Virus record (IMG/VR): IMGVR_UViG_3300045988_112808
Reading direction: 5' to 3' (one strand)
DNA length: 64,000 nt
DNA from: a virus
The notes under the pieces: model-generated
The model's database searches: none
What the model was told of the DNA's origin: nothing
Seen by the model: the letters and a program-made list of their open reading frames with translations, nothing else
Made by a program: the position numbers and the translations under genes
Part shown: positions 46,603-64,000 of the stretch, one piece after another
Numbering within the stretch: the stretch's first letter is position 1
Layout: each line of letters starts with the position of its first letter

Positions 46603-47442
46603 TTAAAAATCAATTACCGCCCGAACCCTGTAACTATTGTACTCAATGTTGCTGTGCGTGCCGCCAATGGAGAAGCTCACGAACCATGCGCTGACCTTGC
46701 TGTACTCGGTACTGGACCAATACCGCGCCGAGGAGAGGGGAGATGCCGAAACATAAGCGAATGCTTTGTTTAGTTCGTCCATATGATGGGCCATTAAATT
46801 TAATTGACCAAGAGATGGTATATACTCGTCATCTTCCAGCAGATTTCTCAATTTTGGATTTCTGGCTACAAGGCGTTCCGTATTGCCGCGTCCGTCAATA
46901 TCAAACAGCGCATCACATTCACGTTCGTAATATGTCTCACTTCCGGATTCTTTACGGCTATCATTGTCAAGCAACCGTACACTATCATGCTCCTCCAGCG
47001 AGATAGCAAACGATACGTCTTTGTGTTTTAATCCGATATAACGCACATTCTCTTTAATATTCTCTCCAGTAAACGGCTCAGCGTGTCCGTTTCCGTAGAT
47101 TAGATACAAACCATCTTTTCTTGATGGTACTCTATTTTCACATACACATCTTTCATTTTTGGGACTTACAATTATGTTCAACTCATTCAACACATGATCT
47201 TTTATAACCTCCTTACATATTTTACCTACAAAACCATAGCCTTCTTTTTGTTTAAGTTCGTCATTCACCATACATCTAATCCAATGCTCTATCTGATTGT
47301 TTCCTCCGTATGTATTAAGCATACACTGTTTTACGAGTTTTTCCAATAATGGCTCTATGTTTTTGATTATATCTTCTTTGGTAAGGTGAAGTTCATTTAA
47401 TATGCAGATCCTTACCGCCTTGTATTCTTTACTTGCGCTCAT
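46603..47442 (-). CDS. hypothetical protein (279 aa) upstream partner of ATPase; GC-rich 3' end
   Basis: ORF track. Confidence 0.65.
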   Translation of the reverse strand: MSASKEYKAVRICILNELHLTKEDIIKNIEPLLEKLVKQCMLNTYGGNNQIEHWIRCMVNDELKQKEGYGFVGKICKEVIKDHVLNELNIIVSPKNERCVCENRVPSRKDGLYLIYGNGHAEPFTGENIKENVRYIGLKHKDVSFAISLEEHDSVRLLDNDSRKESGSETYYERECDALFDIDGRGNTERLVARNPKLRNLLEDDEYIPSLGQLNLMAHHMDELNKAFAYVSASPLSSARYWSSTEYSKVSAWFVSFSIGGTHSNIEYNSYRVRAVIDF

Positions 47443-47449
47443 AATATAT

Positions 47450-47602
47450 CTACTTAATACTGTGAATTATATTTTTTTTCTCTCTCCCACTATCTTCCCC
47501 TATAGGATTATTCCATCCGTATTTTACAGCCGTAGCTTTAAATAGAGGAAGTCTATAAAATCTATAATCATTCTCAAGATGAGTATATACTGTTGATTTC
47601 AT
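47450..47602 (-). CDS. small hypothetical protein (50 aa), ATGA overlap with methyltransferase stop
   Basis: ATG ORF below cutoff. Confidence 0.4.
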   Translation of the reverse strand: MKSTVYTHLENDYRFYRLPLFKATAVKYGWNNPIGEDSGREKKNIIHSIK

Positions 47603-48261
47603 TTCAGTTCTTTAATTAAAGCATCCGCATATATTACAGCTAATTCAGCCGCCTTATCACACGCTTCCAATATTAATTCACCGTGAGGTCCACGTCCCGA
47701 TACGGATGTGATCGGAAGTATGGTTTTTGCTATCTCGTATCTACGTTGTTCCCAATCTACATGGGTGTTACACGGTTCTTGATTGACCTGTATATATCTT
47801 CCTTCAATATTAGAAGATCTTAATGTTTCCGCATTCTCTTCGCCGAATGCAACCAGAATAGACCCACATCCTGGACTTTCACCTATTGTTCCATCTTCTC
47901 TGTGGAATTTTATCCTTCCTTTCATGAACAATATACCTTTTGCTTTCGGGAATACAACATTCTGAAACATCTTATTGTCAAGACGATTAAAAAGAAGAGC
48001 TATTCCATTATTGTGCTCTACCATACGAGTAATAAAATGCTCTATAGTCGGTCTTGAATAAGGTGGGTTTAACCATACCCTTCCTTCCCATTTTTGTTTT
48101 AATCCATCTTGCTCTTTGTTATACATAACCCTGGCTGTCCTCCATAACGGACGCATAGGCGCACATGGATCTAAATCAAATTCCCCTAAAGCGTCTATAA
48201 TTTCTTTAGGTGTGTACCATTCATCTGTACTGTTTTTAGATTTCTCAAATGATGTATTCAT
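47599..48261 (-). CDS. dam: phage Dam-type DNA N6-adenine methyltransferase
   Basis: DEWYTPKEIIDALGEFDLDPCA and WLNPPYS motifs. Confidence 0.8.
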   Translation of the reverse strand: MNTSFEKSKNSTDEWYTPKEIIDALGEFDLDPCAPMRPLWRTARVMYNKEQDGLKQKWEGRVWLNPPYSRPTIEHFITRMVEHNNGIALLFNRLDNKMFQNVVFPKAKGILFMKGRIKFHREDGTIGESPGCGSILVAFGEENAETLRSSNIEGRYIQVNQEPCNTHVDWEQRRYEIAKTILPITSVSGRGPHGELILEACDKAAELAVIYADALIKELK

Positions 48262-48279
48262 ATATCTATGTTTTATAAG

Positions 48280-48942
48280 TTAATCCCATCCTCCAGTAGT
48301 GTACAAAGATACATCTTCCTCCTCTACGTTTACCCCTTTAATAGCCTGTAGAAGTTTTTTCTTTGTCTCCCGGCACATATTGTAACCATATCCTTTATAC
48401 CGATATGAGCGCTCCCATGTGCTTACTGGAAAAGGAATATTTTCGTCAATGACCAGCCTCTTCATATGAAGATGTTCGAAGAATTTCTCATGATAGAGTA
48501 GTTTGTACTCGTATGCTACTATGCTTGCGGATGAGAATGGAAAATAATCATCTTCTTTTTCTTCGTATTTGGGCTCCTTATAGTAAGCCATTTTTGTCAC
48601 AGTAAAATCGAAGCTTCTAAGAATCTCTTTCGGCTTTCCAAACTCTGACTCTATGAACTCTATCCATACCTTTTCTCCCTCTTTCTGGAACGCACATACC
48701 TTCTCATTTCTGTACTTAAATTTCCATCCTTCTTTCTGATGTTTTTCATCATTGAACGAATCAATAGCCTCCTGAAAATCGCTTTCACTTTCAAAGAAAA
48801 TATCAATGTCTTTTACTCTTTCTCCGGAAAGGATATTTTTAAAACATCCACCAGCTATGAATCCTTTGTGGCCTTCCATATACTTGTCAAGCCATCTTAT
48901 TTGCCAGAAATTATCTGGAGTATCTATTACAAAATTATTCAT
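48280..48942 (-). CDS. Pol-beta superfamily nucleotidyltransferase (CCA-adding/polyA-polymerase-like head)
   Basis: GFIAGGCFKNILSGERVKDIDIFF = GG...R..L.G...DID motif. Confidence 0.55.
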   Translation of the reverse strand: MNNFVIDTPDNFWQIRWLDKYMEGHKGFIAGGCFKNILSGERVKDIDIFFESESDFQEAIDSFNDEKHQKEGWKFKYRNEKVCAFQKEGEKVWIEFIESEFGKPKEILRSFDFTVTKMAYYKEPKYEEKEDDYFPFSSASIVAYEYKLLYHEKFFEHLHMKRLVIDENIPFPVSTWERSYRYKGYGYNMCRETKKKLLQAIKGVNVEEEDVSLYTTGGWD

Positions 48943-48960
48943 ATTGTTTATGTTTTGCCG

Positions 48961-49215
48961 TTACCAAGCGAGATAAAAATTCCGCTTCACAATAATACAA
49001 TGAGTGTAATTACTCAGGTCGATTCCGTTGTCCGTAAATGCATCCAGGACCCGTTTTTCCACGTATTTGAGTTTTACTGTTATCCCCTTCTTAAACACTT
49101 CTATTAACTTCTCATTGCACTCAATAGGTCCAATAAGACAGTATCTATTCGAAGGACTGTCTGATATACAATATGTCTGACATCCTAACATGTTGCTTAA
49201 AATTACTTCGTTCAT
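48961..49215 (-). CDS. hypothetical protein
   Basis: ORF track. Confidence 0.55.
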   Translation of the reverse strand: MNEVILSNMLGCQTYCISDSPSNRYCLIGPIECNEKLIEVFKKGITVKLKYVEKRVLDAFTDNGIDLSNYTHCIIVKRNFYLAW

Positions 49216-49222
49216 AATTTCT

Positions 49223-49699
49223 CTATGATTCTAATATGGTGTCTACAAACTCCGTTATTTTATCAACGGATTCTTTTGATAAGGTATATCTTCTCCAATC
49301 CCATCTAAAATGCGCTTTTGGGAGATTTTTAGTAGAATATTTTTCATTTCCGTCCTTGTTAGTCCATTCGTAATTATCCTCTGGATCCGCCACTTTTATC
49401 CCCGATTTAGGTCCGTTACGAAAGCTATATAGCATTCTTATAACCGATTCAAAATCCGAACCTATATCAAATAGCATATGATACGCCTTGTTTATTAAAG
49501 CCCTATCAGCTTGTTCCAAGTCTTCACCAAACAACTCTCTTACACTCCAATTTTTCATTTCTGAATAACGAATGAAATTAAGTTTCCCTTTTTCTATATT
49601 AGGATTTTTTCTTGATAATACAAGCTCCAAATCTTTCACAAATGATTCTTTTAGCTTCTGTTGTCCTAACAAGGCGGTGTATTTACTTACTATATCCAT
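49223..49699 (-). CDS. hypothetical protein
   Basis: ORF track. Confidence 0.6.
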   Translation of the reverse strand: MDIVSKYTALLGQQKLKESFVKDLELVLSRKNPNIEKGKLNFIRYSEMKNWSVRELFGEDLEQADRALINKAYHMLFDIGSDFESVIRMLYSFRNGPKSGIKVADPEDNYEWTNKDGNEKYSTKNLPKAHFRWDWRRYTLSKESVDKITEFVDTILES

Positions 49700-49965
49700 T
49701 ATCCAAAGTTTTTTAATATTACTCCAAACGAATCATATTTAACCCCTAATATATCATGTGCCTTTTGGGATCCACATTCACATTTTCCTACCTTCTGTCC
49801 TGATCCACACCCGCATAAGCCTATTCCCCAATGGTTGATACAGTGGTCGCAGCAGTAGGACTGGTGAAGCCATGTGGCATCACCAGTATCCAAATCCAAT
49901 TTTTTCAAATGTTTCCCAAAACATGCTATTCGAAGCACTATTATCAAATCTGATAGTGACTGCAC
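49699..49965 (-). CDS. Cys-rich metal-binding small protein
   Basis: CCDHC...CGCGSGQKVGKCECG. Confidence 0.55.
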   Translation of the reverse strand: MQSLSDLIIVLRIACFGKHLKKLDLDTGDATWLHQSYCCDHCINHWGIGLCGCGSGQKVGKCECGSQKAHDILGVKYDSFGVILKNFG

Positions 49966-50059
49966 CGCATTTACATTTTTGTATGTATTCTATTTTCATA
50001 TATGTTCCATTTTCAAAATATCTGGGGACAGATATTCTTGCAACTCCAATTTGCGTACA

Positions 50060-50791
50060 TTAAAGCGCCTCATCAGTTCCTAAAAGATGCTCGTTACCCT
50101 CAAAATGAATACAATAATCCCATAATGTTCCATTGGAACATTCGTACTTATAAGGCAATCCATTATAATCGTCCACAATTTCCCTTGCAAACAAACTGAT
50201 ATTCCATTTTTTATTTCCTTCTTTTCTTACCAGCACTTTATCAAACGGCTTAAACTCATATTTCGGTTTTTCTTCAATCCCGAAGAAGCGTTTCAGATAC
50301 TCTTTAGCTTCAGGTTCTTTGCTTGCCTTTAATGCGTCAACCAACTTTTGTCTTTCGGACTCAGTGGCAAATCTGTATTTTTCTATCTGATTTTCCCAAG
50401 CAGATAAACCATCTTCTATTTTAAGAATACCTTTTTGATTTAAAGAGGCATAAAAAGACGTTAAATATTTCCCATGTGTATTTAAAATAAAGATATAGCT
50501 ACCATCTTTATTACTTAACACCTCTCCATCTTTAAATGTAATATATTCTGGAACTTCAAGAAGGAGGCGATTTTCGCTGCTAAGTGCTTTTCCTGTAGCA
50601 GAAAACCAATCTGCCGATACAGAAATCGAATGAATTACAACCAATAACGGACAATTTGACGAATTGTCTTCATATACGATTTCTGCTCTATTTTGTCCTT
50701 TCTCTGTCACAATCCGACCTGCTATTTCCCCTATGTTTATTTTTTTCGCCATTTCTAAATCAAACGGAATTGTTACTGTTTTCTGTTCCAT
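50060..50791 (-). CDS. hypothetical protein, tandem paralog A
   Basis: shares IPFDL..A.KI..GEI, FKPF.+VLVR, CI.+EGNEHLLGT with neighbour. Confidence 0.65.
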   Translation of the reverse strand: MEQKTVTIPFDLEMAKKINIGEIAGRIVTEKGQNRAEIVYEDNSSNCPLLVVIHSISVSADWFSATGKALSSENRLLLEVPEYITFKDGEVLSNKDGSYIFILNTHGKYLTSFYASLNQKGILKIEDGLSAWENQIEKYRFATESERQKLVDALKASKEPEAKEYLKRFFGIEEKPKYEFKPFDKVLVRKEGNKKWNISLFAREIVDDYNGLPYKYECSNGTLWDYCIHFEGNEHLLGTDEAL

Positions 50792-50795
50792 AATC

Positions 50796-51536: not shown

Positions 51537-51565
51537 ATCTTTTCGTTTTTAATTGTTATAAAACA

Positions 51566-51588
51566 GGATGGGTTACTTACGCCCATCC
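51566..51588 (-). terminator. possible intrinsic terminator
   Basis: GGATGGG/CCCATCC stem; on minus strand followed by TGTTTTAT. Confidence 0.45.
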
Positions 51589-51616
51589 CAGTTGTTTCGC
51601 AATACTTTCCATCTCG

Positions 51617-52630
51617 CTATATGCAATCCGGTGGCATCCAGCGGTTAACAAATCGTTTTCGTACCGATTTAGACTCCACTGGTGGCCGGTGACGTCCTCC
51701 ACCAGACCGTGCCGAAACTCGGCGCATTGCCGACACAGCCCGCCACAGTTTTCTGGCTTCTGCTATTCCAATCTTTATCTGTTTACTTGTCTCAATAATA
51801 TTTCCTTTTATACGAATCCAGGCGTTAGGTTTTTCACCAGGAATATAGAAAGGTGTATTCAAGAAATTGATTTCTCCTGACTTCCACTCTTCCAGTTTTT
51901 CATCAAAATCCTTGTAACGGGCTTCTTCTTCCTTTCTTAATCTCTCTAATTTTATTCTTTCTCTTTCTTCCTCACCCTTTCTCCATCTTTCAGATCTTTC
52001 TGAATACTTAATCCATGTACCTTCCCCGCAAACTTCATCAACAATCACATTTACGGTCCCTAACACTTTTAATCCTTGATGATCTAATAAAATTTGAAAG
52101 ATGCGTTTTAATTCATGTACGTGCTTACGCTTGATACTATCTCCGCTCTTGGATAATTCATGATTGGTTCCAAGCCAATCATTAGCACTCTTTTTAAGGA
52201 TACTCTTAGCAGTCCCCATGTTAAAGAACTGAATGTAATCCATCATATTCCCAAAAGCGCCCCAAATATCTGTATAAGATAATTCTGTTTTAGCTCTTTT
52301 GTATTTTTCAATAGACTTCTTAATTGATTCCAGTTTGCTGGCAACAAACCTCATATTACCAGTATCCGATATATTATCCCCTACACTGAAAACCATTGCC
52401 CAAGTTGGTATCGCATTACGAACATAGCATTGATGTTTGCTCGTAGTAGCAGAATAATAATCTTCATTTATCAGGTATGCTTTCTTCCCTTGTTTGTTTT
52501 TTACTATTCTCCCGACTTCAAAGTGATGCCCATAAGAATAAATACTTGTACCTTCAAAGAAGAAATTGCTCCCTGATGCTGATTCTTCTTGTTCATGAGC
52601 CCACAAGTGAGCGACCATTGAATTGTTCAT
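51617..52630 (-). CDS. hypothetical protein with Glu/Arg-rich coiled-coil; C-terminal 35 aa encoded by GC-rich island
   Basis: ORF track. Confidence 0.65.
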   Translation of the reverse strand: MNNSMVAHLWAHEQEESASGSNFFFEGTSIYSYGHHFEVGRIVKNKQGKKAYLINEDYYSATTSKHQCYVRNAIPTWAMVFSVGDNISDTGNMRFVASKLESIKKSIEKYKRAKTELSYTDIWGAFGNMMDYIQFFNMGTAKSILKKSANDWLGTNHELSKSGDSIKRKHVHELKRIFQILLDHQGLKVLGTVNVIVDEVCGEGTWIKYSERSERWRKGEEERERIKLERLRKEEEARYKDFDEKLEEWKSGEINFLNTPFYIPGEKPNAWIRIKGNIIETSKQIKIGIAEARKLWRAVSAMRRVSARSGGGRHRPPVESKSVRKRFVNRWMPPDCI

Positions 52631-52642
52631 ATAAATATCTTT

Positions 52643-53496: not shown

Positions 53497-53548
53497 AATG
53501 TTACGATAAATTCTCCCATCCCGTATTCAGCAAGTTGCTTAAATGATT

Positions 53549-53890
53549 CTATCCCATTACAATAATAAAAACATCATCATTATCATCATCGTTGATACTC
53601 AGCGATAGTTTGATTGTCGCTCTTTTATCGTCTCCTGTCTCCTTCCATACAATCTGACATTCTACGTATTCAGGCTCCTTACCTGTTCTTTCTACAAATT
53701 CATGAAATCTTAAATCAATTTCATGTTTGACTTCTTCAACGTTAGATATTATTACCTCATTTTCACAATCCCCGCAAATAGCATGCGCGAAAGATCCATC
53801 AAAATAATCTATTATTTCTCTGGTATTCGGATTTACTATGGCTTCACAAGCAACCTTTGTTCCACCACATCTTGTACATATATATCCCAT
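53549..53890 (-). CDS. zinc-ribbon protein
   Basis: CTRCGG...C...CGDC. Confidence 0.55.
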   Translation of the reverse strand: MGYICTRCGGTKVACEAIVNPNTREIIDYFDGSFAHAICGDCENEVIISNVEEVKHEIDLRFHEFVERTGKEPEYVECQIVWKETGDDKRATIKLSLSINDDDNDDVFIIVMG

Positions 53891-53935
53891 AATTATCTTC
53901 TTTTAAAATGTTCAATAATTTCATCTACTGTAACC

Positions 53936-54088
53936 TTACGCCATGTGATGCAGCCCGCGTCTCCCCTGAACCGGAGCTCTTCGCACTTTACCCCACCTGT
54001 CTCCTGTGGCGTCCGTCACTATCAGCCGTTGACCTGAATCAGTATTATTTGTAATTCTTTGGTGTTCTTTCTGATAATACACCCTCAT
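53936..54088 (-). CDS. possible small basic protein (50 aa) encoded across GC-rich island, with GGGGAG Shine-Dalgarno
   Basis: ATG ORF MRVYYQKEHQRITNNTDSGQRLIVTDATGDRWGKVRRAPVQGRRGLHHMA. Confidence 0.3.
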   Translation of the reverse strand: MRVYYQKEHQRITNNTDSGQRLIVTDATGDRWGKVRRAPVQGRRGLHHMA

Positions 54089-54103
54089 GATCTCCCCATC
54101 TCC

Positions 54104-54904
54104 TTATTCTTTCAAGTTATGTTTTTTCATTATTTCTTCTATCAATTCGTCTGTTTCCATATAATAATCCCAACAGGAATCAACCTCTTCCCATTCTTCT
54201 CCCTCTTCATCCTCCCTGGATTCATCTTTGTATTTCTTGACAAATTTCACTTTCTTTTCAAGCACATACCCCTTTACATCTCCCCACATCCACATACCTA
54301 TGAATTTCACTTCATCATCAATCAATTTGTCAATTTGGGTTTTCCAATCGGAAGTATTATTACTAACCATTTTTGTGTACCTCTCCTTTGTACAGAAAGC
54401 TATACCTTTAACATAATCCCATTGACTGTATCCTGTTGTGGACCATTCTTTGACAAATATATCTTTGCCTAAGTCTGAAAGAATCTGAATCAATTCTTTA
54501 CATCCTAAGTCTTCTATAAATTCATACGTATAATCATACGTGTAAAGATCTGATGGAGAAATGCTAAAAATTTCTTTATAATACCACATTTTATCATGGT
54601 TATCATATCTCAGTTGATAACCGTCAATCTTGCCTTTCTTAAAATAATTCAGCAAGTCTTTCCATTTAACATATTTACTAATAAGTTTATGTAGTGCATC
54701 TATAAGCGAGTGTCGACTATCTCCGTATTTACCAAATACTTCTCTCCAATCGCACACATCTTGCAGTTGGTATGAATCGCTATATTCCCATAAGAAATAT
54801 GCTGCCATATCCCAACTTTCACAAGGACATATACTGTCAGTATCATAGTATATTTTTATACGATAATTCCCTACTTCTTTTGTTGTAATAAGTCTGTCTT
54901 CCAT
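54104..54904 (-). CDS. hypothetical protein
   Basis: ORF track. Confidence 0.65.
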   Translation of the reverse strand: MEDRLITTKEVGNYRIKIYYDTDSICPCESWDMAAYFLWEYSDSYQLQDVCDWREVFGKYGDSRHSLIDALHKLISKYVKWKDLLNYFKKGKIDGYQLRYDNHDKMWYYKEIFSISPSDLYTYDYTYEFIEDLGCKELIQILSDLGKDIFVKEWSTTGYSQWDYVKGIAFCTKERYTKMVSNNTSDWKTQIDKLIDDEVKFIGMWMWGDVKGYVLEKKVKFVKKYKDESREDEEGEEWEEVDSCWDYYMETDELIEEIMKKHNLKE

Positions 54905-54917
54905 GTTTTTTTATATT

Positions 54918-55370
54918 TTAAATAGTTTTTAACTTCTCATCAATAAATGCATCTATTACATCATAGTATGAACCATTAAAATCATAATTTTCATATTTTT
55001 CCGTAAACTCTTTAGCCCACTCTCGAATGATGTTAAATGCCTGTTCCCTGCTATATTCTTTTGGTCCTGTTAGATACTCCACAGCTTCCACCGATAACTC
55101 TTGCAGATTTCGTAAGTAATTTAAACCAATGCTATATGGTAGCTTACCTACTTCTATACATACATGATGATCTTGTTTAAAGGCGTCCTGCAAGTCTTCA
55201 GGACTCTCTATCAATGACTCAGACTCATCATCTACCCTCACCTTGTATAACTCAAAATCTTCATTTTCTGCCGACACCCATATCTTGTAGGCTTTTTCGT
55301 TGGACAATCTTTTCCAAACAAATCCGTCGCTGAATACAATCAGGCTACCTGTTACTATCGTTCCTTTCAT
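54918..55370 (-). CDS. hypothetical protein
   Basis: ORF track. Confidence 0.6.
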   Translation of the reverse strand: MKGTIVTGSLIVFSDGFVWKRLSNEKAYKIWVSAENEDFELYKVRVDDESESLIESPEDLQDAFKQDHHVCIEVGKLPYSIGLNYLRNLQELSVEAVEYLTGPKEYSREQAFNIIREWAKEFTEKYENYDFNGSYYDVIDAFIDEKLKTI

Positions 55371-55651
55371 TTTTCTTCCTCCTCATTATCCCATCCTAAA
55401 CAAGAATCTAAATGTGAAATAAAAATTGTAGCTCCCTTATTTTCTTCCACAGTAGGATACTCTACCTCATAATAGTCAAATTCAGAGCTCTCTAATCCGA
55501 CCCTATCTTCATCCCATCCATTTTTGGTTCCATCCTCTGCCATTTCTTTAAGCTTTTCCAAAGCCTCTTCTGGTGTTTCTGCTTCAATGGATAATCTATC
55601 TTTCATCCATCCATAAACTCTTCTTTCTACTTCAAATATAAATTCTTTCAT
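55367..55651 (-). CDS. hypothetical acidic protein
   Basis: ORF track. Confidence 0.55.
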   Translation of the reverse strand: MKEFIFEVERRVYGWMKDRLSIEAETPEEALEKLKEMAEDGTKNGWDEDRVGLESSEFDYYEVEYPTVEENKGATIFISHLDSCLGWDNEEEEK

Positions 55652-55691
55652 TTCGCTATTTTTTTTTGTTTATTATATTTCACATCTTGTA

Positions 55692-56012
55692 TCAAATAAC
55701 CTCCTTGGAAGCATTATTTAATGGTGATTCCTTCAATCTCTTTAGATTAAATCCTATCATATTCCCACACTGTGGACACTTAAAACCATAAGGTTCACTA
55801 ACCATCCTGTCACTTCTGTTGCACATCATACAGTATGGTCGCCATCCGTCATACCATGTCCCTCCCTTGGCTTCCTTCAATCTTCTCAACTTTTCTTTTT
55901 CTGGAAGATCTATATTCTGTTTTAGTGTTTCCATTAATCTGTTGTTTACCGTGATAATATCAATATCTGAGACATCAAAACATAATACGGCTATTTTGAT
56001 TTTCGCTTCCAT
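55692..56012 (-). CDS. zinc-ribbon protein
   Basis: CMMC...CPQCG. Confidence 0.55.
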   Translation of the reverse strand: MEAKIKIAVLCFDVSDIDIITVNNRLMETLKQNIDLPEKEKLRRLKEAKGGTWYDGWRPYCMMCNRSDRMVSEPYGFKCPQCGNMIGFNLKRLKESPLNNASKEVI

Positions 56013-56018
56013 GATTGT

Positions 56019-56198
56019 TTATTGTTCTACATCAATAATCCCATACTCTGCTACTTCCAACACATCCTGCACTATTTCCGGATAGTCAGTCGTATCTAAC
56101 GAAGCATCTTGAACGTATGCTTCCGCTAATTTCTTGGCTTCTTCAAACGATTCGGCTTGTATATATAAATCAAGCGTCAATGAAAACGGATATAACAT
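56019..56198 (-). CDS. small acidic hypothetical protein (59 aa)
   Basis: ATG ORF one codon below cutoff. Confidence 0.45.
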   Translation of the reverse strand: MLYPFSLTLDLYIQAESFEEAKKLAEAYVQDASLDTTDYPEIVQDVLEVAEYGIIDVEQ

Positions 56199-56200
56199 AG

Positions 56201-56515
56201 CTAATCTGTTATTCTGTAATAATAATCAAGTTCTTCTCCCTTAAAGTTGTTCATGGCATACTCGTCAGCTTCCCGCCACAACCGGTCATACAATGCAGCC
56301 AGTTCACGATTGCTTTTATAATGTTGCCAGATTTTATGATTCAATACCAGCGTCAATTCTGTAAAGAACTTATAATCGTCTTTCCATTCGCTGAACGCAC
56401 GTTTGTAGGTATCTTTGACACCTGCTATACCATACTTGTCGGCTATGCTGAAATCTTCCCAAAAGGTAGTTATCAGGTCATAGCCATTCTCCTGCATAAA
56501 TTCTCGAAATGTCAT
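56201..56515 (-). CDS. hypothetical protein
   Basis: ORF track. Confidence 0.6.
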   Translation of the reverse strand: MTFREFMQENGYDLITTFWEDFSIADKYGIAGVKDTYKRAFSEWKDDYKFFTELTLVLNHKIWQHYKSNRELAALYDRLWREADEYAMNNFKGEELDYYYRITD

Positions 56516-56522
56516 ATCCTAA

Positions 56523-57218
56523 CTATTTAAAGGCAATTCCATAATTACTCCAAAACTTTACTTGTTGAGACAAATTCCACGGCATAGTGTTGTATGCTTG
56601 AAAATATTCCCACTCGATTTTATCCTCAAAGCCGGGACAATGATGTTTGACGTAAGCATAAAACTCATCATGCTTCTGTTTTGCAAAATCATCCCCTTCT
56701 TCATCCAGCATGACAATTTTTGGTTTGTTTGCCTCCCGACATTGTTTTGCGGTTTGATAGAATCGCCGAAAGTGTTCGGCATAATACTCGTTTCCGCTAT
56801 AATCAACGAAGGTAACTTTACCTCCATAAATTTTGCAAACCCTTAAAGGTTCCCGTGTTGCTCTCTTTACCGGTCTTGAACCATCCCATAGCCAACCACA
56901 GAACTGTATGCCATCCCAGACAAGATACGGTAAGTATTTTAAAGAAAAAGACTCTATATTCAACACCTCATATTGTACAGGATTAGTTTCTTGTGCTGCA
57001 TCTTCAGCGGTTTTGTATATGGGCATACTTACCTTAAATTTTTCCTCTCCCAATTTGCTGCCAAACCAAAAGATATGTTCGGTATCCACGTTGTTTCCAC
57101 AAATACCGGTATCTTTTATTCTCATGCCGCGATATTCTGCTTCACGAATCACTCCGTTTCTGTGCATAAATACCCTTGTTCCAAAGGGGAACGGGTAAAC
57201 TGATACTTTTCTTTCCAT
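56523..57218 (-). CDS. hypothetical protein
   Basis: ORF track. Confidence 0.65.
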   Translation of the reverse strand: MERKVSVYPFPFGTRVFMHRNGVIREAEYRGMRIKDTGICGNNVDTEHIFWFGSKLGEEKFKVSMPIYKTAEDAAQETNPVQYEVLNIESFSLKYLPYLVWDGIQFCGWLWDGSRPVKRATREPLRVCKIYGGKVTFVDYSGNEYYAEHFRRFYQTAKQCREANKPKIVMLDEEGDDFAKQKHDEFYAYVKHHCPGFEDKIEWEYFQAYNTMPWNLSQQVKFWSNYGIAFK

Positions 57219-57268
57219 ATTGTTTTATTTATAAATTAAAATTCAGCAATATAACTATATACATAATT

Positions 57269-58024
57269 TTATTTTCCCCAGCACCAAAAATTTACAGCGT
57301 ATTTCCCGGTAGTTATAAATATCTTACCTCCTCCTATCTCCGCAAGTATGTTCTTTCCAAATATCCTTGTAAGAAGCGGTATATACTTTGCATCTATAGG
57401 TAAATCCTGGATTTCTTTTATAGGTCTATATGGCACAAACGCTTTGTTCTCATATACCATCTCAATATACAATCCATCCGGTGATTCAAACACGTCTTTC
57501 CCTTTCTGTCTCATCCCAGATCGTATTATCCGTTCTTTCCAAGATTGAATATATGATTTTCTAAGGGTCTCATTTATCTTATTAATGACCTCTTCCTTAA
57601 ATTCGTAATACTCATATATACGACCTTTGTAGTCAGCTATCATTTCTTCAATCTTACTTTCGGATGCCCATAATCCATAATACACATAGCAATCCAATAA
57701 TCTATCTACTGAAGAAACACCAATCAGTACCATTTTAGAAAGTGGATTTCCCTCTTTTTCCAATTCTTCTCTTGCTCTGTCTGTCACCGCATCCCACCAT
57801 TGCCCTTCACACTTCTCTATCTCCCCGTTGTCAAGTACGATATCGAACTTTCTACCTCCGAAAGCTTCTCTTCTCTCATTTCTCTTTGCAAGGAAATCAT
57901 AGAATACACCTCCTATCCTTCCAATAATGGTATCATCTCCGTACTTTGTGCTAATTTTATCAGGCATTTCGTCGAAGACAAGAAACTTCGATTTTCCTGA
58001 TTCTACTAAGTATAATAGCTTCAT
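57269..58024 (-). CDS. hypothetical protein
   Basis: ORF track. Confidence 0.65.
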   Translation of the reverse strand: MKLLYLVESGKSKFLVFDEMPDKISTKYGDDTIIGRIGGVFYDFLAKRNERREAFGGRKFDIVLDNGEIEKCEGQWWDAVTDRAREELEKEGNPLSKMVLIGVSSVDRLLDCYVYYGLWASESKIEEMIADYKGRIYEYYEFKEEVINKINETLRKSYIQSWKERIIRSGMRQKGKDVFESPDGLYIEMVYENKAFVPYRPIKEIQDLPIDAKYIPLLTRIFGKNILAEIGGGKIFITTGKYAVNFWCWGK

Positions 58025-58035
58025 GATTTATCTCT

Positions 58036-58515
58036 TTAGATGTAAGTTATGCTGCCAACATTAATCTGCATTATATCGTTTTCCAGCGTAATGAAATTAT
58101 TTTGTTTTATGGGTCCAAACATCAATCCATATACACTTACTGTATTAAACAGCCTAACAGTGTGAAAATCTTCATTTAGCTCTACCCTGTTTTTATCCCA
58201 ATATCCCAAATCGTTGATAGTTGCCGGGAATCCTCCTACGTCGTTATGCCTGTAGTAATCGTTTTTATTGAAAACGATTCCCTTTATTAACAGGTTACCG
58301 ATGCTTTTCATGTTGAATCCGGACAACGCGATCTGCTCTGAGATATAACTAATCAAACAGTTATGATACGTGTTTGGCCTATCTCCTCTCTCGTTAATAA
58401 TTTTCTTCCATTTCTTCGTTAATGGAACCCTAATATCCATATATGTACCAAATACGACTATGTTAGGACATTCTCCTTCAAACTTCGTTAAATCTTCTAC
58501 TTTCATAATTAACAA
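58036..58515 (-). CDS. hypothetical protein
   Basis: ORF track. Confidence 0.6.
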   Translation of the reverse strand: MLIMKVEDLTKFEGECPNIVVFGTYMDIRVPLTKKWKKIINERGDRPNTYHNCLISYISEQIALSGFNMKSIGNLLIKGIVFNKNDYYRHNDVGGFPATINDLGYWDKNRVELNEDFHTVRLFNTVSVYGLMFGPIKQNNFITLENDIMQINVGSITYI

Positions 58516-58608
58516 ACATTTGTATTGTTTTCGTTGTTCACTATCTGATTAATGTATGATCCTGGCCACGAACAGCCAGGCTGACCTCATAGCAGGACGG
58601 GCGCTGCC

Positions 58609-58797
58609 CTACTCTAGCTGTTCTACCCACTCTCTGTACCCTACGTTAAAACCAATAGGATCATACCTTTTGATCATAGTACCATAATTCTCTCTACCGC
58701 AATACCTGTTTTTTCCTCCAATAATCCATCTCTCATCGTCTCTATCTGGAGATATGGAGTTAAGATACTTTTCATAATCCTTTCTACTCTTTCCCAT
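58609..58797 (-). CDS. hypothetical protein
   Basis: ORF track. Confidence 0.5.
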   Translation of the reverse strand: MGKSRKDYEKYLNSISPDRDDERWIIGGKNRYCGRENYGTMIKRYDPIGFNVGYREWVEQLE

Positions 58798-59143
58798 CTT
58801 TGTCTTGATTTAAACAATAGTTAATAAAATAAGCAACCTGTTCATTTTCCCCTGTATTATCAAAATCACCTAAAGTCATATCATCATAATCCAGCAGAAC
58901 CATACGAAAACCGTTTTTTTTGACATACACCTCCGTTAAAAACATAGGAATCCCAGCAATTTCTATTATCACCGGAAACTGATCATCAAAGTCAAACGCA
59001 TTATTATCTTCTCCCCATTTTTTAAATTTTAGCTTTATACTTCCACCGTTCTCCACTAATGCCTCTTTGATGTACTTTAATCTTTTTGCATTCAGATCAA
59101 TCTCTGCTTTTTCTATTTCTTTGTACAATTCATTCAGATCCAT
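58784..59143 (-). CDS. hypothetical protein
   Basis: ORF track. Confidence 0.6.
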   Translation of the reverse strand: MDLNELYKEIEKAEIDLNAKRLKYIKEALVENGGSIKLKFKKWGEDNNAFDFDDQFPVIIEIAGIPMFLTEVYVKKNGFRMVLLDYDDMTLGDFDNTGENEQVAYFINYCLNQDKDGKE

Positions 59144-59645
59144 ATTCCACTATATTTATGTTGTCAAATTTTTCTTTTATAACATCCAAGGCTCCACACT
59201 CGTTTGTTATCATAGCATGCATCCCTGGCTTCATTCTCCACAGATTAAAATACCTTGTCACATTCATAGTGGCATTAAATAATGATATTTCATATCTTGT
59301 GTTTCCATTTTTATCACGCCCTATGTTTTTAATATAACATATGTCTGGCTTGTATTTGAAATAATTAAAAAGCCTATACCATCCCTTCCCGTTACATGTT
59401 TCACGATTCCATATTCCAGCAAGCTTCCTATATCCCCTTACTGGTATTTTCTTTATTTCTTTTGGTACGATCTTGACATACTTTCCTTCTCCGATTGGTA
59501 TGGTCATATTACCTGCCTCTTCAGTACAAAAGTATTCTATTTCAGATGCCATTCCTTTATACACATAGAACCGGTATAAGTTCCCGTCAGGGTCTACCCG
59601 ATCCATGTAATATAATATCACTTTGTCTACTTTTATCTTTTTCAT
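59130..59645 (-). CDS. hypothetical protein
   Basis: ORF track. Confidence 0.6.
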   Translation of the reverse strand: MKKIKVDKVILYYMDRVDPDGNLYRFYVYKGMASEIEYFCTEEAGNMTIPIGEGKYVKIVPKEIKKIPVRGYRKLAGIWNRETCNGKGWYRLFNYFKYKPDICYIKNIGRDKNGNTRYEISLFNATMNVTRYFNLWRMKPGMHAMITNECGALDVIKEKFDNINIVEYGSE

Positions 59646-59893
59646 TCCTTTATTCTACTTATCTTTAAATTGTTATTCCCACAGTATTCCTTCAGCCAAC
59701 TATCCGTTAGATAACGATTAACTCTATCGTATTTCTTTTTCGGACCCTTGCTCCAGAATTTCCATTCGTTTGTGATATTGTACCCATATTTATCAAACCA
59801 ATAGATATAATACACTACGTTACCATATAAATCCACTCTTTTTCTTTCCTGTATGACTACCTCGTAAGGTATCTTCTTGTCTCTTTTCTCCAT
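59642..59893 (-). CDS. hypothetical protein with strong AAGGAGG Shine-Dalgarno
   Basis: ORF track; SD 6 nt upstream of ATG. Confidence 0.6.
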   Translation of the reverse strand: MEKRDKKIPYEVVIQERKRVDLYGNVVYYIYWFDKYGYNITNEWKFWSKGPKKKYDRVNRYLTDSWLKEYCGNNNLKISRIKE

Positions 59894-59911
59894 CTTTGTC
59901 CTCCTTTATTG

Positions 59912-59950
59912 AATAAAAAAACGGCACCTATCTTCGCAGACCAGTGCCGG
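59912..59950 (-). terminator. intrinsic terminator (minus strand)
   Basis: CGGCAC/GTGCCG stem with inner TCT/AGA pairing, then TTTTTTTATT on minus strand. Confidence 0.6.
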
Positions 59951-59970
59951 CAACTAACTTACATGGAAAA

Positions 59971-60381: not shown

Positions 60382-60832
60382 GCAAAAATTTAAAAACGAC
60401 TCTCATTATAGTTGCGAAGTTCTCTACCTTAATCCACTCATGAGCTACTGCTCTAAGTACAGACGTTTCATATGTTGGAATATTGTCTTCTTCAAGCACC
60501 TTACAAGAAGCCAGAACTCCTTCGGTCGGCTTTAGTCCACGGTCATGCAGCTCGCAGAGACCGTCTGGCCGGCGGAATGCGCACCACCCGTCTTTCTCTG
60601 TCGGCTGGATCATCGCTATTGGTTTTTCCTTCACTGCAAGATACCCTACCATCCACATTGTTTCTTTTAACCTATCAGCGTATCCGGCATCTATGATAGC
60701 CTCTATGTCTTTTGGCGTACCAATACAAGGAACCTTACACATGTTCTTGCATTTATCACATGTACAAGGTTGCTCCCATCTATTATGATCTATGCCTACC
60801 AACTTCTTTATCCGTTCTACTTCCTCTTTCAT
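60359..60832 (-). CDS. YkgJ-like putative Fe-S/zinc-chelating Cys-cluster protein
   Basis: CTCDKCKNMCKVPC plus GWCAFRRPDGLCELHDRGLKP. Confidence 0.45.
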   Translation of the reverse strand: MKEEVERIKKLVGIDHNRWEQPCTCDKCKNMCKVPCIGTPKDIEAIIDAGYADRLKETMWMVGYLAVKEKPIAMIQPTEKDGWCAFRRPDGLCELHDRGLKPTEGVLASCKVLEEDNIPTYETSVLRAVAHEWIKVENFATIMRVVFKFLHENERRK

Positions 60833-60833
60833 G

Positions 60834-61115
60834 TCACACTTCTTTCGTTAGTTTATCATAATATGCTTTCAATTCCGGTGAAGCATATTCCATAAATGCC
60901 TCAAATAAACATAGTACTTCTACTATCGCGTATATAGCGCACCCTTTCATCGTTGAAAGCTGTTCAAGATCATTACTGTACAGGCACGTAACATAAGCAC
61001 CTACATTAAATACATGTAAATCTATCCTTACGTATTCCATACATAAAGATAATGACTTAAACAAATCCTTTACATCATTCTTATCAAAGAGTTCTACAAA
61101 TTCTCTCAATTTCAT
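60834..61115 (-). CDS. hypothetical protein
   Basis: ORF track. Confidence 0.55.
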   Translation of the reverse strand: MKLREFVELFDKNDVKDLFKSLSLCMEYVRIDLHVFNVGAYVTCLYSNDLEQLSTMKGCAIYAIVEVLCLFEAFMEYASPELKAYYDKLTKEV

Positions 61116-61495
61116 CTTACTACCCTTTCCACGTGTTTAATTAATACTACTGCCATCCCTTTGCCGGTTTTTATCGCACATTCCGATCCTTTTATCCATT
61201 CTACACATCCTACATACTTTTCTGTAGAATGAAAACCTGGATTGTATTTCCCGGATGTACTAAACTCTACCGTATCCCCTACCTTCAGATCCTCAAAAGC
61301 AATAGCCCATGTGGTCCAAATTCTATCATGTCTTCCAGGCTGAATGGCTCCGATTACGCCTTTCTTACGACCGTTTTTTATTGCCTTTAGTATTATCTTT
61401 CTATCACCTTCAATAAGGCTGCAAAAACACCCATAAAAGGTCAAATCAACCTGTTTTCCTCCTATTTCTTCTCTTATTTTTGTTATTCTGTTCAT
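61112..61495 (-). CDS. hypothetical protein
   Basis: ORF track. Confidence 0.6.
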   Translation of the reverse strand: MNRITKIREEIGGKQVDLTFYGCFCSLIEGDRKIILKAIKNGRKKGVIGAIQPGRHDRIWTTWAIAFEDLKVGDTVEFSTSGKYNPGFHSTEKYVGCVEWIKGSECAIKTGKGMAVVLIKHVERVVR

Positions 61496-61739
61496 TTTCT
61501 GATTTTGTTTTATTTTTTTCTTTGTTTTTTCTATCTTCTATAGAAGATGATAATAACATTATCTTTTCTATGTTACTTTTTGACTGTAAAAAAGAATCGC
61601 ATTTCATTACTACTACGATCTTCTTAAGTTCCCCATTATCATACAGCGATACACGCATCATGTTTTGCGCCTCGTCCACTATCAGACCTGGAGTAGTCTT
61701 AGCCATTTTGCGTAGCTTATTATACTCCGGTCTTTCCAT
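61446..61739 (-). CDS. hypothetical protein; low-complexity Lys/Asn-rich tail may be spurious extension into AT-rich spacer
   Basis: ORF track; 50-nt overlap with next gene. Confidence 0.35.
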   Translation of the reverse strand: MERPEYNKLRKMAKTTPGLIVDEAQNMMRVSLYDNGELKKIVVVMKCDSFLQSKSNIEKIMLLSSSIEDRKNKEKNKTKSENEQNNKNKRRNRRKTG

Positions 61740-62004
61740 TTCCTCTGTTTATTACTCTATAGTATTTATCTTTATCTCCCTCTTCCAACTTCTCCAAATA
61801 GAAAATTCCATCATGCAAATGAGACAAACAAAACCTGTATCCGTATTTCTGCGTTCTTCTTACATGATCCCGCAATCTTATCTCTTCACTTTTGTCTTGT
61901 ACTTTGATTTTAATACTGTCTCCTTCTTTGATTGTGTATAAAATAGTTTGAATCTCTTCTTTTTTCATCTTATAAAATATTTTAACGGCAGCACCTATAC
62001 TCAC
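61720..62004 (-). CDS. hypothetical protein
   Basis: ORF track. Confidence 0.55.
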   Translation of the reverse strand: MSIGAAVKIFYKMKKEEIQTILYTIKEGDSIKIKVQDKSEEIRLRDHVRRTQKYGYRFCLSHLHDGIFYLEKLEEGDKDKYYRVINRGNGKTGV

Positions 62005-62031
62005 GCACCACTACTGCCTTATGTTTAACAA

Positions 62032-62841
62032 TTAAATACTTAACTCTTCAATGGTCAAGCCTTTTTCTTTTGCCCATTTTAACATCGAGCATAATTCTGT
62101 TTCTGATTTATATTTCGGATCACGCCACGCCCATCCGAATTTATCCAGGACATGATGATATAATTCGTCGGCCTTTGCCGTGTAAATGTCTTTGAATAAA
62201 TGCTCCGAACCTTCCGGTATAAGCATCTCTGTTGTTGCAAAATCGGAATACGATAAACATCCGTAAGCATATTCTGTTATTTCACTCCACGCTTCTCCGG
62301 CTTTAAATCCAAATTCTTTTACAAAAGCCAAAGTTAGATACATATTTAATAATATTGTTACATCATATCCCGAATCTGACTTTCTTTCTATTATTTTCTT
62401 TTCAAATTCCTTTAAATCTTCAGGTCCTAAAAAGATGTATCCTGATACCGACCGATAATTAGCCTCCGCATACTTCTTGCATTTATCATCATTAACAATC
62501 TTACCAATGTTAGATAACATCTTTTGCCTCCATTCATCACAAAACTCTACCTCTACGTTTATCCAATCGGTACCATAATTGTATTCTTTTGGATGTCCGA
62601 CCGATATTACCTTTATGTTATTCACACCATATTCATAAAGGCGTTCGCCCACCTTATTCGCCCATTCCTGTACAAAAGGAATAAACTTATTGCAATAAGA
62701 ATCAAAATCAAAATCTAATTCCTCCTCATATTCCGGCATCTCTTCATAATCTTGTTCAAAGAAATAGCGAGGATCTGCTATTGTTTCATAGAAACTTACG
62801 TTAATGAAACAAAACTCGTTGGTTGTCGTTTTTAATATCAT
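62032..62841 (-). CDS. hypothetical acidic protein (269 aa)
   Basis: ORF track. Confidence 0.65.
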   Translation of the reverse strand: MILKTTTNEFCFINVSFYETIADPRYFFEQDYEEMPEYEEELDFDFDSYCNKFIPFVQEWANKVGERLYEYGVNNIKVISVGHPKEYNYGTDWINVEVEFCDEWRQKMLSNIGKIVNDDKCKKYAEANYRSVSGYIFLGPEDLKEFEKKIIERKSDSGYDVTILLNMYLTLAFVKEFGFKAGEAWSEITEYAYGCLSYSDFATTEMLIPEGSEHLFKDIYTAKADELYHHVLDKFGWAWRDPKYKSETELCSMLKWAKEKGLTIEELSI

Positions 62842-63092
62842 AGCTTTTTGTATTTACGTACATTTTTCTTGCCATAGAATCTACACATGGCACGAATCTG
62901 ACTATAAAATACTTTTGTCCTCCTGGCCTCAAAGTATTTAAACATTTCTTCATTCTTTGTTTCCCACACGTAATCCGTTTGAGAACTCATGTGATTTTTG
63001 TCCTTGCGTGAATAATGGTAATATGATACCACAACACGTTTCGCACCATTCTTTACAGGTACGATATTCACATCTATGTTATTATCTGTCAT
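62838..63092 (-). CDS. hypothetical protein
   Basis: ORF track; TATAAT-like box upstream. Confidence 0.55.
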   Translation of the reverse strand: MTDNNIDVNIVPVKNGAKRVVVSYYHYSRKDKNHMSSQTDYVWETKNEEMFKYFEARRTKVFYSQIRAMCRFYGKKNVRKYKKL

Positions 63093-63124
63093 ATTATTAT
63101 CGTTTTATATATTATACAAATACA

Positions 63125-63158
63125 AAGAGCGCATACCTTCACAGGCCGGCGCTCTTTT
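63125..63158 (-). terminator. possible terminator hairpin flanked by A/T tracts
   Basis: AGAGCGC/GCGCTCT 8-bp stem, 16-nt loop. Confidence 0.45.
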
Positions 63159-63211
63159 CAATAAAAATGAAAAAACTAACATTACATAAACATATTGTTT
63201 TCTGCTCTTTA

Positions 63212-63445
63212 TTACAATACTTTTGTCCCACAATTGTTATATCGTCCGTACTCTTTTTTCGTATCATTCAAGATTTCAAACACCATCTTCTTATGATCTT
63301 TGTTTGGTAACTTGTCTTTAACAGCCGATATCACGCTCGCTATAGACGTAAAGCCTGAATCTGTTATTGAACACAACAACAAACCTCTGTCGTCGTCTGT
63401 GCTTATCGCTGACGCCTTTATAATATCATTCCTATATATTCTCAT
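63212..63445 (-). CDS. hypothetical protein
   Basis: ORF track. Confidence 0.55.
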   Translation of the reverse strand: MRIYRNDIIKASAISTDDDRGLLLCSITDSGFTSIASVISAVKDKLPNKDHKKMVFEILNDTKKEYGRYNNCGTKVL

Positions 63446-63623
63446 AATCTTTCGTTTTATTGTCTACAAACTTATCTATATCGTCTCTTATTCTTTTTAG
63501 CACTCCGGCTATAATTTCCGGCATCTCTCCTTCGGTACGGTTCAGAGTTTCTATCACCCCATCAATCCTACCAATTTGACGCCATAAGAAATTGGCGTCT
63601 TTCGCATTAAATTCCCTCATCAT
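63432..63623 (-). CDS. hypothetical protein
   Basis: ORF track. Confidence 0.55.
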   Translation of the reverse strand: MMREFNAKDANFLWRQIGRIDGVIETLNRTEGEMPEIIAGVLKRIRDDIDKFVDNKTKDYENI

Positions 63624-63729
63624 GTCTTATTTTACAGTAAACAACTTGCTTTTTTAAGCACCAGTCTTGCGATTCTGAGAGTGAACACCGTTCGGAGTTG
63701 TTAAAAAATATACAATCTTTGCAGAACAT
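63607..63729 (-). CDS. possible 40-aa Cys-rich micro-protein overlapping start of next gene
   Basis: MFCKDCIFFNNSERCSLSESQDWCLKKQVVYCKIRHDEGI; frame open a further 26 codons upstream without ATG. Confidence 0.25.
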   Translation of the reverse strand: MFCKDCIFFNNSERCSLSESQDWCLKKQVVYCKIRHDEGI

Positions 63730-64000
63730 AAGAGGATCTTCGTCGTCACCAACTACTTTGACATCATACTCTATACCATACAATTTTAATCTAAATACAT
63801 CTCCTGTTTTTTAGAAGACAAATCCATGTTCGGACCGAATGTTATTACTTCCATATAATTATGTTTTATTGTTTGTGAGATGCCCAGAATCGAACCAGGA
63901 CCGGCACATACATACCGGCACGCCGCGCCATCCCTCTATGATACACAAATAGACATGCCTATTCTCACGAACCGACATGCCAAAACCCAAAACTTAATTT

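Follow-up and report, generated by a model that had tools for sequence, protein, structure and literature searches.

A stretch of 64,000 nucleotides from a virus (IMG/VR record IMGVR_UViG_3300045988_112808), referred to here as the window, is syntenic with positions 85929-148694 of OR575929.1 ('csAssE-Sib', 151,256 bp, human gut), at 82-97% nucleotide identity. Babkin et al. 2024 (PMC11054128) described the phage behind that record as crAssE-Sib, an Epsilon crAss-like phage. Between 44 and 64 kb the window consists of small minus-strand genes in series, mostly of unknown function, and an earlier note on this DNA had drawn attention to five GC-rich patches within that block, at 46603-46760, 51560-51790, 53920-54060, 58540-58630 and 63880-63990. 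These patches, called islands 1 to 5 in what follows, are the subject of the present analysis.

Over these coordinates the islands have 50-54% GC, against a mean of 0.375 for the window. Their 100-nt peaks reach 0.61 (46650-46749), 0.59 (51650-51749), 0.57 (53950-54049), 0.54 (58550-58649) and 0.48 (63900-63999), in the order of their numbers. GC-rich patches in an AT-rich block therefore exist at about the places where they had been reported, but they are a selection. Specifically, a scan of the whole window at a threshold of GC 0.53 in 80 nt returns 34 such islands, on either strand and mostly within open reading frames (ORFs), and two of them lie in the same minus-strand block and had gone unlisted (49787-49887 and 60484-60650). 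The five listed islands are a hand-picked subset and are not special to this block. Many of the 34 encode protein stretches rich in Ala, Gly, Pro, Arg and Glu. Two further islands that look non-coding at first sight are small plus-strand ORFs: the one at 10151-10408 specifies an 85-aa Glu/Arg/Gly-rich low-complexity protein with the C-terminus RGRGRGRGRSY, and the one at 11262-11489 a 75-aa protein with a Pro/Ala/Gly-rich stretch.

The explanation proposed here, which as a whole is considered probable, is that islands 1-5 are five unrelated things whose only common trait is a high G+C content in the AT-rich genome of an Epsilon crAss-like phage. Island 1 would encode the ligand-binding tip of a predicted Lcl_C/DUF1566-type, C-type-lectin-like domain, island 2 would be a frameshifted gene end with a terminator, and islands 3-5 would be non-coding elements at mosaic junctions. 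Apart from island 1, the islands are ordinary phage genome furniture. Island 1 comprises the following features:

46603..47442, minus strand: gene of 279 aa whose 3' end is island 1; its crAssE-Sib homologue, WOZ57377.1, is annotated as a DUF3988 domain protein.
46616..46736, minus strand: core of island 1, 121 nt, read as the variable region (VR) of a diversity-generating retroelement (DGR) and carrying the allele 'cluster 2'; all 121 nt can be aligned with the template repeat (TR) of the related contig L059, positions 9390-9510.
46617..46628, minus strand: GGGTTCGGGCGG, the G+C-rich 3' end of the VR and putatively the retained first half of a segment resembling an initiation of mutagenic homing (IMH) site; kept in nearly all VR alleles and in the TR of L059.

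Several lines of evidence identify island 1 as a sequence derived from a DGR variable region. In the comparison with crAssE-Sib, its flanks are about 97-99% identical, and the roughly 100 nt between them have a third of their positions changed. The changes fall mainly on codon positions 1 and 2, the third-position C is kept, and identity returns at GGTTCGGGCGGTAATTGA. The pattern recurs on a larger scale: a 19-mer directly upstream of the VR is found once per contig in more than 116 IMG/VR contigs, among which the 100 nt downstream of it vary codon-wise just as they do against crAssE-Sib. In the alignment of the 279-aa protein with its homologues, variation is confined to the final ~35 residues. 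The homologues number 598, many of them with a precomputed match to Pfam family PF07603 (Lcl_C, formerly DUF1566). In the window protein itself, residues 235-276 match positions 78-116 of the 117 positions of this family (E 6.6e-4, 20.4 bits), a match that covers exactly the VR residues.

The template side of the system is found in L059. This contig carries what is, judged from its parts, a complete DGR of the DUF1566/'CLec2' class, which belongs to a different family from the DGR annotated in crAssE-Sib:

L059 8103-13498, with a second target at 11-271: the DGR, made up of a target with VRa, a 154-aa ORF, the TR and a reverse transcriptase (RT); the second target is ~9 kb off.
L059 9390-9510: the TR, in which AAC codons abound; an RVT_1 reverse transcriptase (E 6.1e-11) comes immediately after it.
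VRa of L059: at the end of a 1132-aa Lcl_C protein (36.9 bits, over the cut-off).
VRb of L059: in the homologue of the window's 279-aa gene, ~9 kb from the DGR.

No Pfam match was obtained for the 154-aa ORF, which lies between the 1132-aa target and the TR. As read from the alignment, ten of the 11 differences between VRa and the TR are at A, as are all differences between VRb and the TR. The window VR departs from the same TR at 22 of 121 positions, 13 of them TR adenines (A makes up 36 of the 121; Fisher p 0.0017). In L059, TR-VR homology continues after GGTTCGGGCGG through GGTGGCAGCAT, which the TR and its VRs have in common; in the window, the GGTGGCAGCAT half of the homing segment is swapped for AATTGATTTTTAA (also read as AATTGATTTT).

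These data are compatible with a model in which, in relatives such as L059, the RT copies the TR with errors at adenines and writes the copy into the 121-nt stretch. Such A-to-N mutagenesis would strip adenines from the VR and lift its G+C, and because it depletes A it would also explain why island 1 is GC-rich at all. The TR of L059 has 52% GC and its VRs 59%, and the window VR has 56% compared with 38% for the remainder of its gene.

Some observations weigh against the assignment of island 1. The Lcl_C match of the 279-aa protein, at 20.4 bits, is under the curated cut-off of 34.9 bits, and an AlphaFold2 model built on a 32-sequence alignment has a pLDDT of 46, too poor to confirm the fold. 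Moreover, 9 of the 22 window mismatches are off adenines, and for this reason L059 is not the exact template of the window VR. A sequence search of the PDB with the 279-aa protein gave no match.

Island 2 has a different make-up and consists of the end of another gene and its terminator:

51577..52630, minus strand: the island 2 gene, split into an ORF at 51617..52630 and the true C-terminal ORF at 51577..51702, as aligned with 10 relatives; phrog_7247, function unknown.
Between 51726 and 51725, minus strand: 8-nt deletion (GCACCGGG); the 8 nt are kept in 45/45 related sequences and lost only in the window.
51558..51588, minus strand: predicted intrinsic terminator, in which GGGAUGGG, a 9-nt loop and CCCAUCC, a perfect 7-nt inverted repeat, are followed by UGUUUUAU.

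This arrangement identifies island 2 as ordinary coding sequence that ends in an intrinsic terminator and has its frame shifted by a private deletion. The tail of ORF 51617..52630 (...RAVSAMRRVSARSGGGRHRPPVESKSVRKRFVNRWMPPDCI) is out of frame, and the conserved C-terminus (...EDVTGHQWSLNRYENDLLTAGCHRIAYSEMESIAKQLGWA) persists as ORF 51577..51702. The earlier note had described odd C-terminal extensions or micro-ORFs that two of the islands add to genes beside them. The extension on island 2 does exist, as an out-of-frame read that arises because the window-private 8-nt deletion shifts the frame, but the end of the island 1 gene is a genuine conserved domain end. The island 2 terminator overlaps the true-frame stop codon, is kept in all 10 aligned relatives and folds at -13.3 kcal/mol (z -1.6). 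Programmed frameshifting was considered for this gene and ruled out, with 45/45 relatives in frame. A second private frame-breaking indel, by which the gene at 63432..63854 falls apart into three ORFs, lies in a run of six A at 63807-63812; in relatives the run is A7 (in frame), A8 or A9. The presence of this second private frameshift calls for caution on the reality of the island 2 deletion, and the indels at 51725-51726 and 63807-63812 may be either real inactivating mutations or assembly errors.

The three remaining islands, and the region that two of them enclose, present as follows:

53922..54027, minus strand: island 3, a ~105-nt non-coding element that adjoins the 5' side of a 113-aa gene (53549..53890).
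54104..58515, minus strand: hyperplastic gene-cassette region, with about 10 small ORFs in the window.
58538..58608, minus strand: island 4, two hairpins and then GATAGTGA, directly after the stop of a 62-aa ORF (58609..58797).
58591-58608, minus strand: island 4 hairpin GGCAG/CUGCU.
~58557-58587, minus strand: island 4 hairpin GGUC..CCUGGC/GCCAGG..AUC.
58538-58545 (in island 4) and 54016-54023 (at the 5' edge of island 3), minus strand: the copies of GATAGTGA.
63875..63981, minus strand: island 5, a ~107-nt non-coding element found in 123 related sequences (55 distinct), with 1-nt indels.
63952-63981, minus strand: 5' hairpin of island 5, 30 nt.
63883-63899, minus strand: T-arm-like hairpin of island 5, CCUGG-UUCGAUU-CUGGG, part of a predicted three-way-junction domain.

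Islands 3-5 are non-coding, single-copy, mutually unrelated elements at mosaic junctions. They are read as non-coding because they carry indels not divisible by 3 and because start codons are lost. Specifically, 71 related sequences, 29 of them distinct, have one copy of island 3 each, and 1-nt indels occur among the copies. The micro-ORFs on these islands do not survive the comparison: in relatives, the 50-aa ORF on island 3 has ACG for ATG or is interrupted by 1-nt indels, and the 43-aa ORF on island 5, a coding sequence (CDS) in crAssE-Sib, is broken by 1-nt indels. The crAssE-Sib CDS in question, WOZ57404.1 (L001 16732-16890; OR575929.1 148558-148716), sits on the island 5 element and is probably not a gene, because that element has 1-nt indels among relatives.

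The gene order around these elements reveals how mobile their surroundings are. Island 3 is nearly always joined to its downstream gene (53549..53890) and has at least five different upstream contexts; island 4 keeps its upstream gene (58609..58797) constant, with at least four downstream contexts, and island 5 has at least two downstream contexts. In the 39 contigs with both islands 4 and 3, 27 different spacings are seen, the shortest of 85 nt and the longest, that of the window, of 4608 nt. The cassette region in between shows modular gain and loss of small ORFs (104, 150, 156, 251, 266-269 aa and others), of which the window has the largest set, and 53663-59458 is mostly absent from crAssE-Sib. 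In three contigs the whole interval between islands 4 and 3 is deleted, with the junction exactly at GATAGTGA. This 8-mer is not enriched in the window (5 matches versus 2.6 expected), and microhomology-mediated deletion therefore suffices to account for these junctions. As such, the interval from island 4 to island 3 stands out clearly as a hotspot of cassette exchange whose borders are fixed, and it may interest those who study crAss-like phage accessory genes. The suggestion that the GC-rich islands are recombination hotspots is thereby borne out in part for islands 3, 4 and 5, given their varied contexts and length classes, but not for islands 1 and 2.

In addition to their position, the pattern of substitutions makes it plausible that islands 3-5 are structured RNAs. 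Substitutions in all three mostly keep base pairs on the gene-sense strand. The RNAalifold consensus of island 3 consists of four nested helices with 24 pairs, and 97.8% of its cells are paired, compared with 31-53% when the partner columns are slid. The outer stem of island 4 contains one U-A to C-G switch between haplotypes, with exceptions. The consensus fold of island 5 has 33 pairs and only 2 unpaired cells in 52 distinct sequences. There, 10 of 11 informative transitions from Watson-Crick pairs give wobble, about half being expected (binomial p ~0.006), and many invariant G-U pairs are possible on the minus strand only, which points to a candidate RNA in the sense of the genes.

These observations are compatible with a model in which islands 3-5 form folded structures within the transcript and serve, between cistrons, as signals for processing, stabilisation or termination, or as 5' leaders. 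Islands 4 and 5, which are joined to the upstream gene, would act in processing, in termination or in the stabilisation of 3' ends, and island 3, joined to the downstream gene, would serve as a 5' leader. Together, islands 4 and 3 bracket a cassette region that gains and loses genes.

Several findings count against a role as RNA. Changes in islands 3 and 5 are all one-sided (10 pair types in island 3), with no compensatory double change in either. Folding energies compared with shuffles give z values of -1.1 for island 3, -1.4 for island 4 and 0.0 for island 5, none of them significant. Furthermore, the relatives are close, at 87-100% identity, and because of this closeness conservation alone says little. 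Variants of island 5 are also on record in the contigs L227, L183 and L196: 22 nt of the 5' hairpin arm are duplicated in tandem, 11 nt are deleted at the T-loop-like hairpin, or the 5' half is swapped for another; since duplicated, deleted or replaced forms exist, island 5 is not strictly required intact. Searches for known RNAs were negative: Rfam 15 gave no match at gathering score in the window and none with E <=5 on any island, and ARAGORN found 0 tRNA or transfer-messenger RNA genes in the window and in 15 related loci. A distant blastn search of islands 3, 4 and 5 against GenBank phages returned only crAssE-Sib, and that only for island 5. A weak match to the Rfam Gut-1 RNA at 48777-48841 (minus strand; 25.9 bits versus a gathering score of 50, E 0.24), within the ORF at 48280..48942, is probably due to chance. 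The idea that the islands are structured RNAs is accordingly narrowed to islands 3-5, where it is plausible for non-coding elements with preserved pairing but weakened by the missing double changes in islands 3 and 5, the energies and the lack of an Rfam family; it does not extend to islands 1 and 2, which are both protein-coding (a DGR variable region, and a frameshifted gene end with its terminator).

The alternative that survives best, although it is judged unlikely, is that islands 3-5 have no function as RNA structures. According to this explanation they are decaying remnants of GC-richer sequence, such as pseudogene fragments or, for island 5, a former tRNA, which are kept since the relatives are too close for erosion to have acted. 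Folding energies no better than those of shuffles and the absence of an Rfam family would fit such remnants, as would the T-arm-like GGUUCGAUUC motif of island 5 and the duplication, hairpin deletion and replaced 5' half that its relatives tolerate. Decaying sequence does not readily explain, however, why pairing in island 5 is kept in nearly all informative transitions, why island 3 loses so much of its pairing once the partner columns are slid, or why attachment to one neighbouring gene is maintained through many rearrangements, and ARAGORN finds no tRNA in the window or the 15 relatives. A class II tRNA remnant was tried for island 5 as a specific candidate and discarded, given a poor fit of the acceptor, D and anticodon arms and no support from any tool.

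A second alternative, rated improbable, concerns all GC-rich patches at once and regards them as traces of DNA that came from GC-richer genomes by horizontal acquisition or gene conversion, which would make them recombination patches and not functional elements. GC is indeed raised at all three codon positions within the islands (at third positions, 0.54 versus 0.34 outside). Most relatives have a GC-rich island 2, whereas that of crAssE-Sib has more A+T and has diverged strongly, and island 1 comes from a DGR family that is spread over otherwise unrelated phage contigs. Yet any choice of windows by their GC necessarily raises GC at each codon position, and many of the islands are accounted for by protein segments rich in Ala, Gly, Pro or Arg. 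Donor sequences were not found either; among GenBank phages only crAssE-Sib was matched.

A third question is whether the island 1 VR is still being rewritten. The evidence favours a VR that looks frozen in the window's lineage, where it is inherited as a few (about three) alleles. No copy of a matching TR is present in the 64-kb window, in the 19-kb locus or in the complete genome of crAssE-Sib, whose annotated DGR targets a receptor-binding protein (RBP) and whose own TR and VR do not align to island 1 and are unrelated to it. An RT is paired with the TR only in L059; none is annotated in crAssE-Sib 85929-148694, and the ORFs of the window were not scanned for one. Among the 93 contigs with the window-type 3' context there are 7 VR clusters, three of them major (65, 14 and 10 contigs), with the window in the third, and two singleton clusters in this set look recombinant. 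Alleles are unchanged across many contigs and co-segregate with their flanks, and it is because they travel with the flanks that the VR looks frozen. In the 55 contig pairs with at most 3 flank differences in 612 nt, the VRs never differ by more than 3 nt, and ongoing diversification, in the form of different VRs on otherwise identical backbones, was not seen among these pairs. In the proposed model, with the matching template missing and the 3' homing segment half replaced, the VR would be passed on as a frozen allele.

The size of the genomes adds to this. The 278-aa forms of the protein, from contigs of ~145-155 kb, fall into large clusters at 90% identity (362 and 410 members). Homologues of 280 aa, from contigs of ~100-107 kb (proteins P0026-P0084), are almost all singleton clusters. 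The distribution suggests that the VR may be actively diversified in another phage lineage, while the clusters of the ~150-kb lineage are large and clonal.

The opposite view, that island 1 is a live non-adjacent DGR target served by a matching TR and RT outside the window, or in trans from a co-resident phage or host, is given little credence. Non-adjacent targets are known (Wu et al. 2018, PMC5758913), the homologue of the window gene in L059 is one of them, at ~9 kb from its DGR, at least 7 VR clusters occur in the window-type context, and the G+C-rich GGGTTCGGGCGG is still present. The TR search of the window also covered 64 kb of a genome of roughly 150 kb, and a template beyond the window is possible, a point that speaks against a frozen VR. 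However, the complete syntenic genome of crAssE-Sib has no matching TR, two pattern scans of IMG/VR for the TR returned only contigs of 13-96 kb as opposed to the 140-155 kb reached by window-type VR contigs of this genome type, the alleles stay tied to their flanks, and the second half of the homing segment is swapped out. Contigs with an L059-type TR, at 13-96 kb, have no other DNA in common with crAssE-Sib, L059 itself excepted. The frozen allele thus remains the preferred account of island 1.

The least credible explanation is that the islands are diverged copies of one miniature element which inserts at gene ends, sometimes in frame, in the manner of miniature inverted-repeat transposable elements (MITEs), repetitive extragenic palindromic (REP) sequences, yeast mitochondrial GC clusters or Rickettsia palindromic elements. 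The words said to be shared are present, at coordinates that differ from those reported by 1-20 nt: CTCACGAACC at 46676 and 63964, CACGAAC at 58567, GAGATGCC at 46740 and 63877, and GCCGAAAC at 46745 and 51711. Their lengths are no greater than chance allows. The longest word common to two islands, of 10 nt, is equalled in 67/300 dinucleotide shuffles, and the 12 8-mers in common among islands compare with 5.8 +/- 3.1 in shuffles and are equalled in 14/300. All-against-all blastn-short of the 34 islands yields only words of 10-15 nt and no alignable similarity, and a covariance model of island 3 finds itself in the window at 126.6 bits, followed by an unrelated place at 11.6 bits (E 0.25). These alignments and the covariance modelling, both of which the earlier note had proposed as checks, reveal no pairwise similarity beyond GC, and its idea of a degenerate mobile or repeat element is not upheld. 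Short perfect hairpins, which every island was thought to contain, are confirmed for two of them at a threshold of 6 nt or more: perfect inverted repeats of this length are found in island 2 (GGATGGG/CCCATCC and CTGGTGG/CCACCAG) and island 4 (CCTGGC/GCCAGG), but not in islands 1, 3 and 5. Even though all islands are ~100-150 nt long, GC-rich in an AT-rich genome and placed at gene ends or between genes, with one 10-mer and several 7-8-mers in common and shared 8-mers marginally above shuffles, a common origin is very hard to credit when nothing aligns, every related contig has each island as a single copy, no terminal inverted repeats or target duplications are seen, and islands 1 and 2 are conserved coding sequence with homologues of their own.

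The findings are mostly of corrective value, as they indicate that GC-rich patches in AT-rich phage genomes are, alone, no evidence for a repeat family. At the same time, since a VR is visible as a GC island, VRs both live and fossil can be recognised at little cost even where the RT and TR have been lost or are located elsewhere. On this evidence, Epsilon crAss-like phages would carry, besides the VR of their own DGR, a second one that is unannotated and comes from another DGR family. A bolder pair of ideas, taken together a long shot, is that DGRs with a TR of this family, in co-infecting phages or the host, occasionally rewrite the orphan VR of these phages in trans, or that islands 3-5 are undescribed intercistronic RNA elements, one of them tRNA-like. 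If true, rewriting in trans would account for at least 7 allele clusters in genomes that lack a template, and islands 3-5 would form the constant edges of a region in which gene cassettes are exchanged and would control how the flanking messages are processed.

Known systems offer partial parallels for each of these elements. T7-like phages have intercistronic RNase III processing hairpins, and intrinsic terminators consist of a hairpin and a U-tract. Islands 3-5 resemble these as GC-rich stem-loops between cistrons on the sense strand, and the hairpin and U-tract of island 2 fit an intrinsic terminator. In contrast to intrinsic terminators, islands 3-5 have no U-tract. Canonical-looking terminators are present in two minus-strand spacers of the same block, at 59894-59970 (GGCAC...GUGCC, then UUUUUUU) and 63093-63211 (AGAGCGC...GCGCUCU, then UUGUAUUUG); because these spacers hold them, terminators with a U-run, which islands 3-5 lack, do exist here.

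For the cassette region, promoter-early stem-loop (PeSL) cassettes come to mind, which are near-identical repeats around each ORF, promoter included. Arbiol and colleagues reportedly described them in 2010 as flanking genes in hyperplastic regions of T4-type phages. Like them, islands 3 and 4 are hairpin-bearing, intergenic and bracket a region of rapid gene gain and loss. Unlike them, the two have only the 8-mer GATAGTGA in common, and nothing is repeated between the internal cassettes. In a promoter scan, promoter-like sites were no commoner than in shuffles and none was identified at the islands, where a scan for the terminator consensus was uninformative.

For island 1 the parallels are closest. 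DUF1566/Lcl_C targets ('CLec2', category d) are known from DGRs such as that of Legionella LdtA (Wu et al. 2018, PMC5758913), and phage DGRs with two targets have been described by Baykov et al. 2023 (PMC10743442). As in the CLec2 systems, the VR of island 1 forms the last ~40 codons of an Lcl_C-like domain, AAC-type codons are the ones varied, and the 3' end is G+C-rich; as in both kinds of system, the related contig L059 has a TR, an RT and a second, larger Lcl_C target. It departs from the CLec2 systems in lacking a matching TR in the window or crAssE-Sib, in its truncated homing segment and frozen alleles, and in the location of its gene, which lies in a minus-strand block of small, mostly non-structural genes and not in a tail module. 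The DGR of crAssE-Sib and other Epsilonunovirus members is the same kind of element in the same phage group, yet it targets the RBP from an unrelated TR, and the island 1 VR belongs to a different DGR family. The account of that system by Babkin et al. 2024 (Viruses 16:513, PMC11054128) reports fragmented or missing RT genes in many Epsilonunovirus members; it describes only the RBP-targeting DGR and makes no mention of DUF3988 or a second VR. The closest known system to island 1 is thus the VR of a DUF1566/Lcl_C-class DGR with non-adjacent or multiple targets (PMC5758913, PMC10743442).

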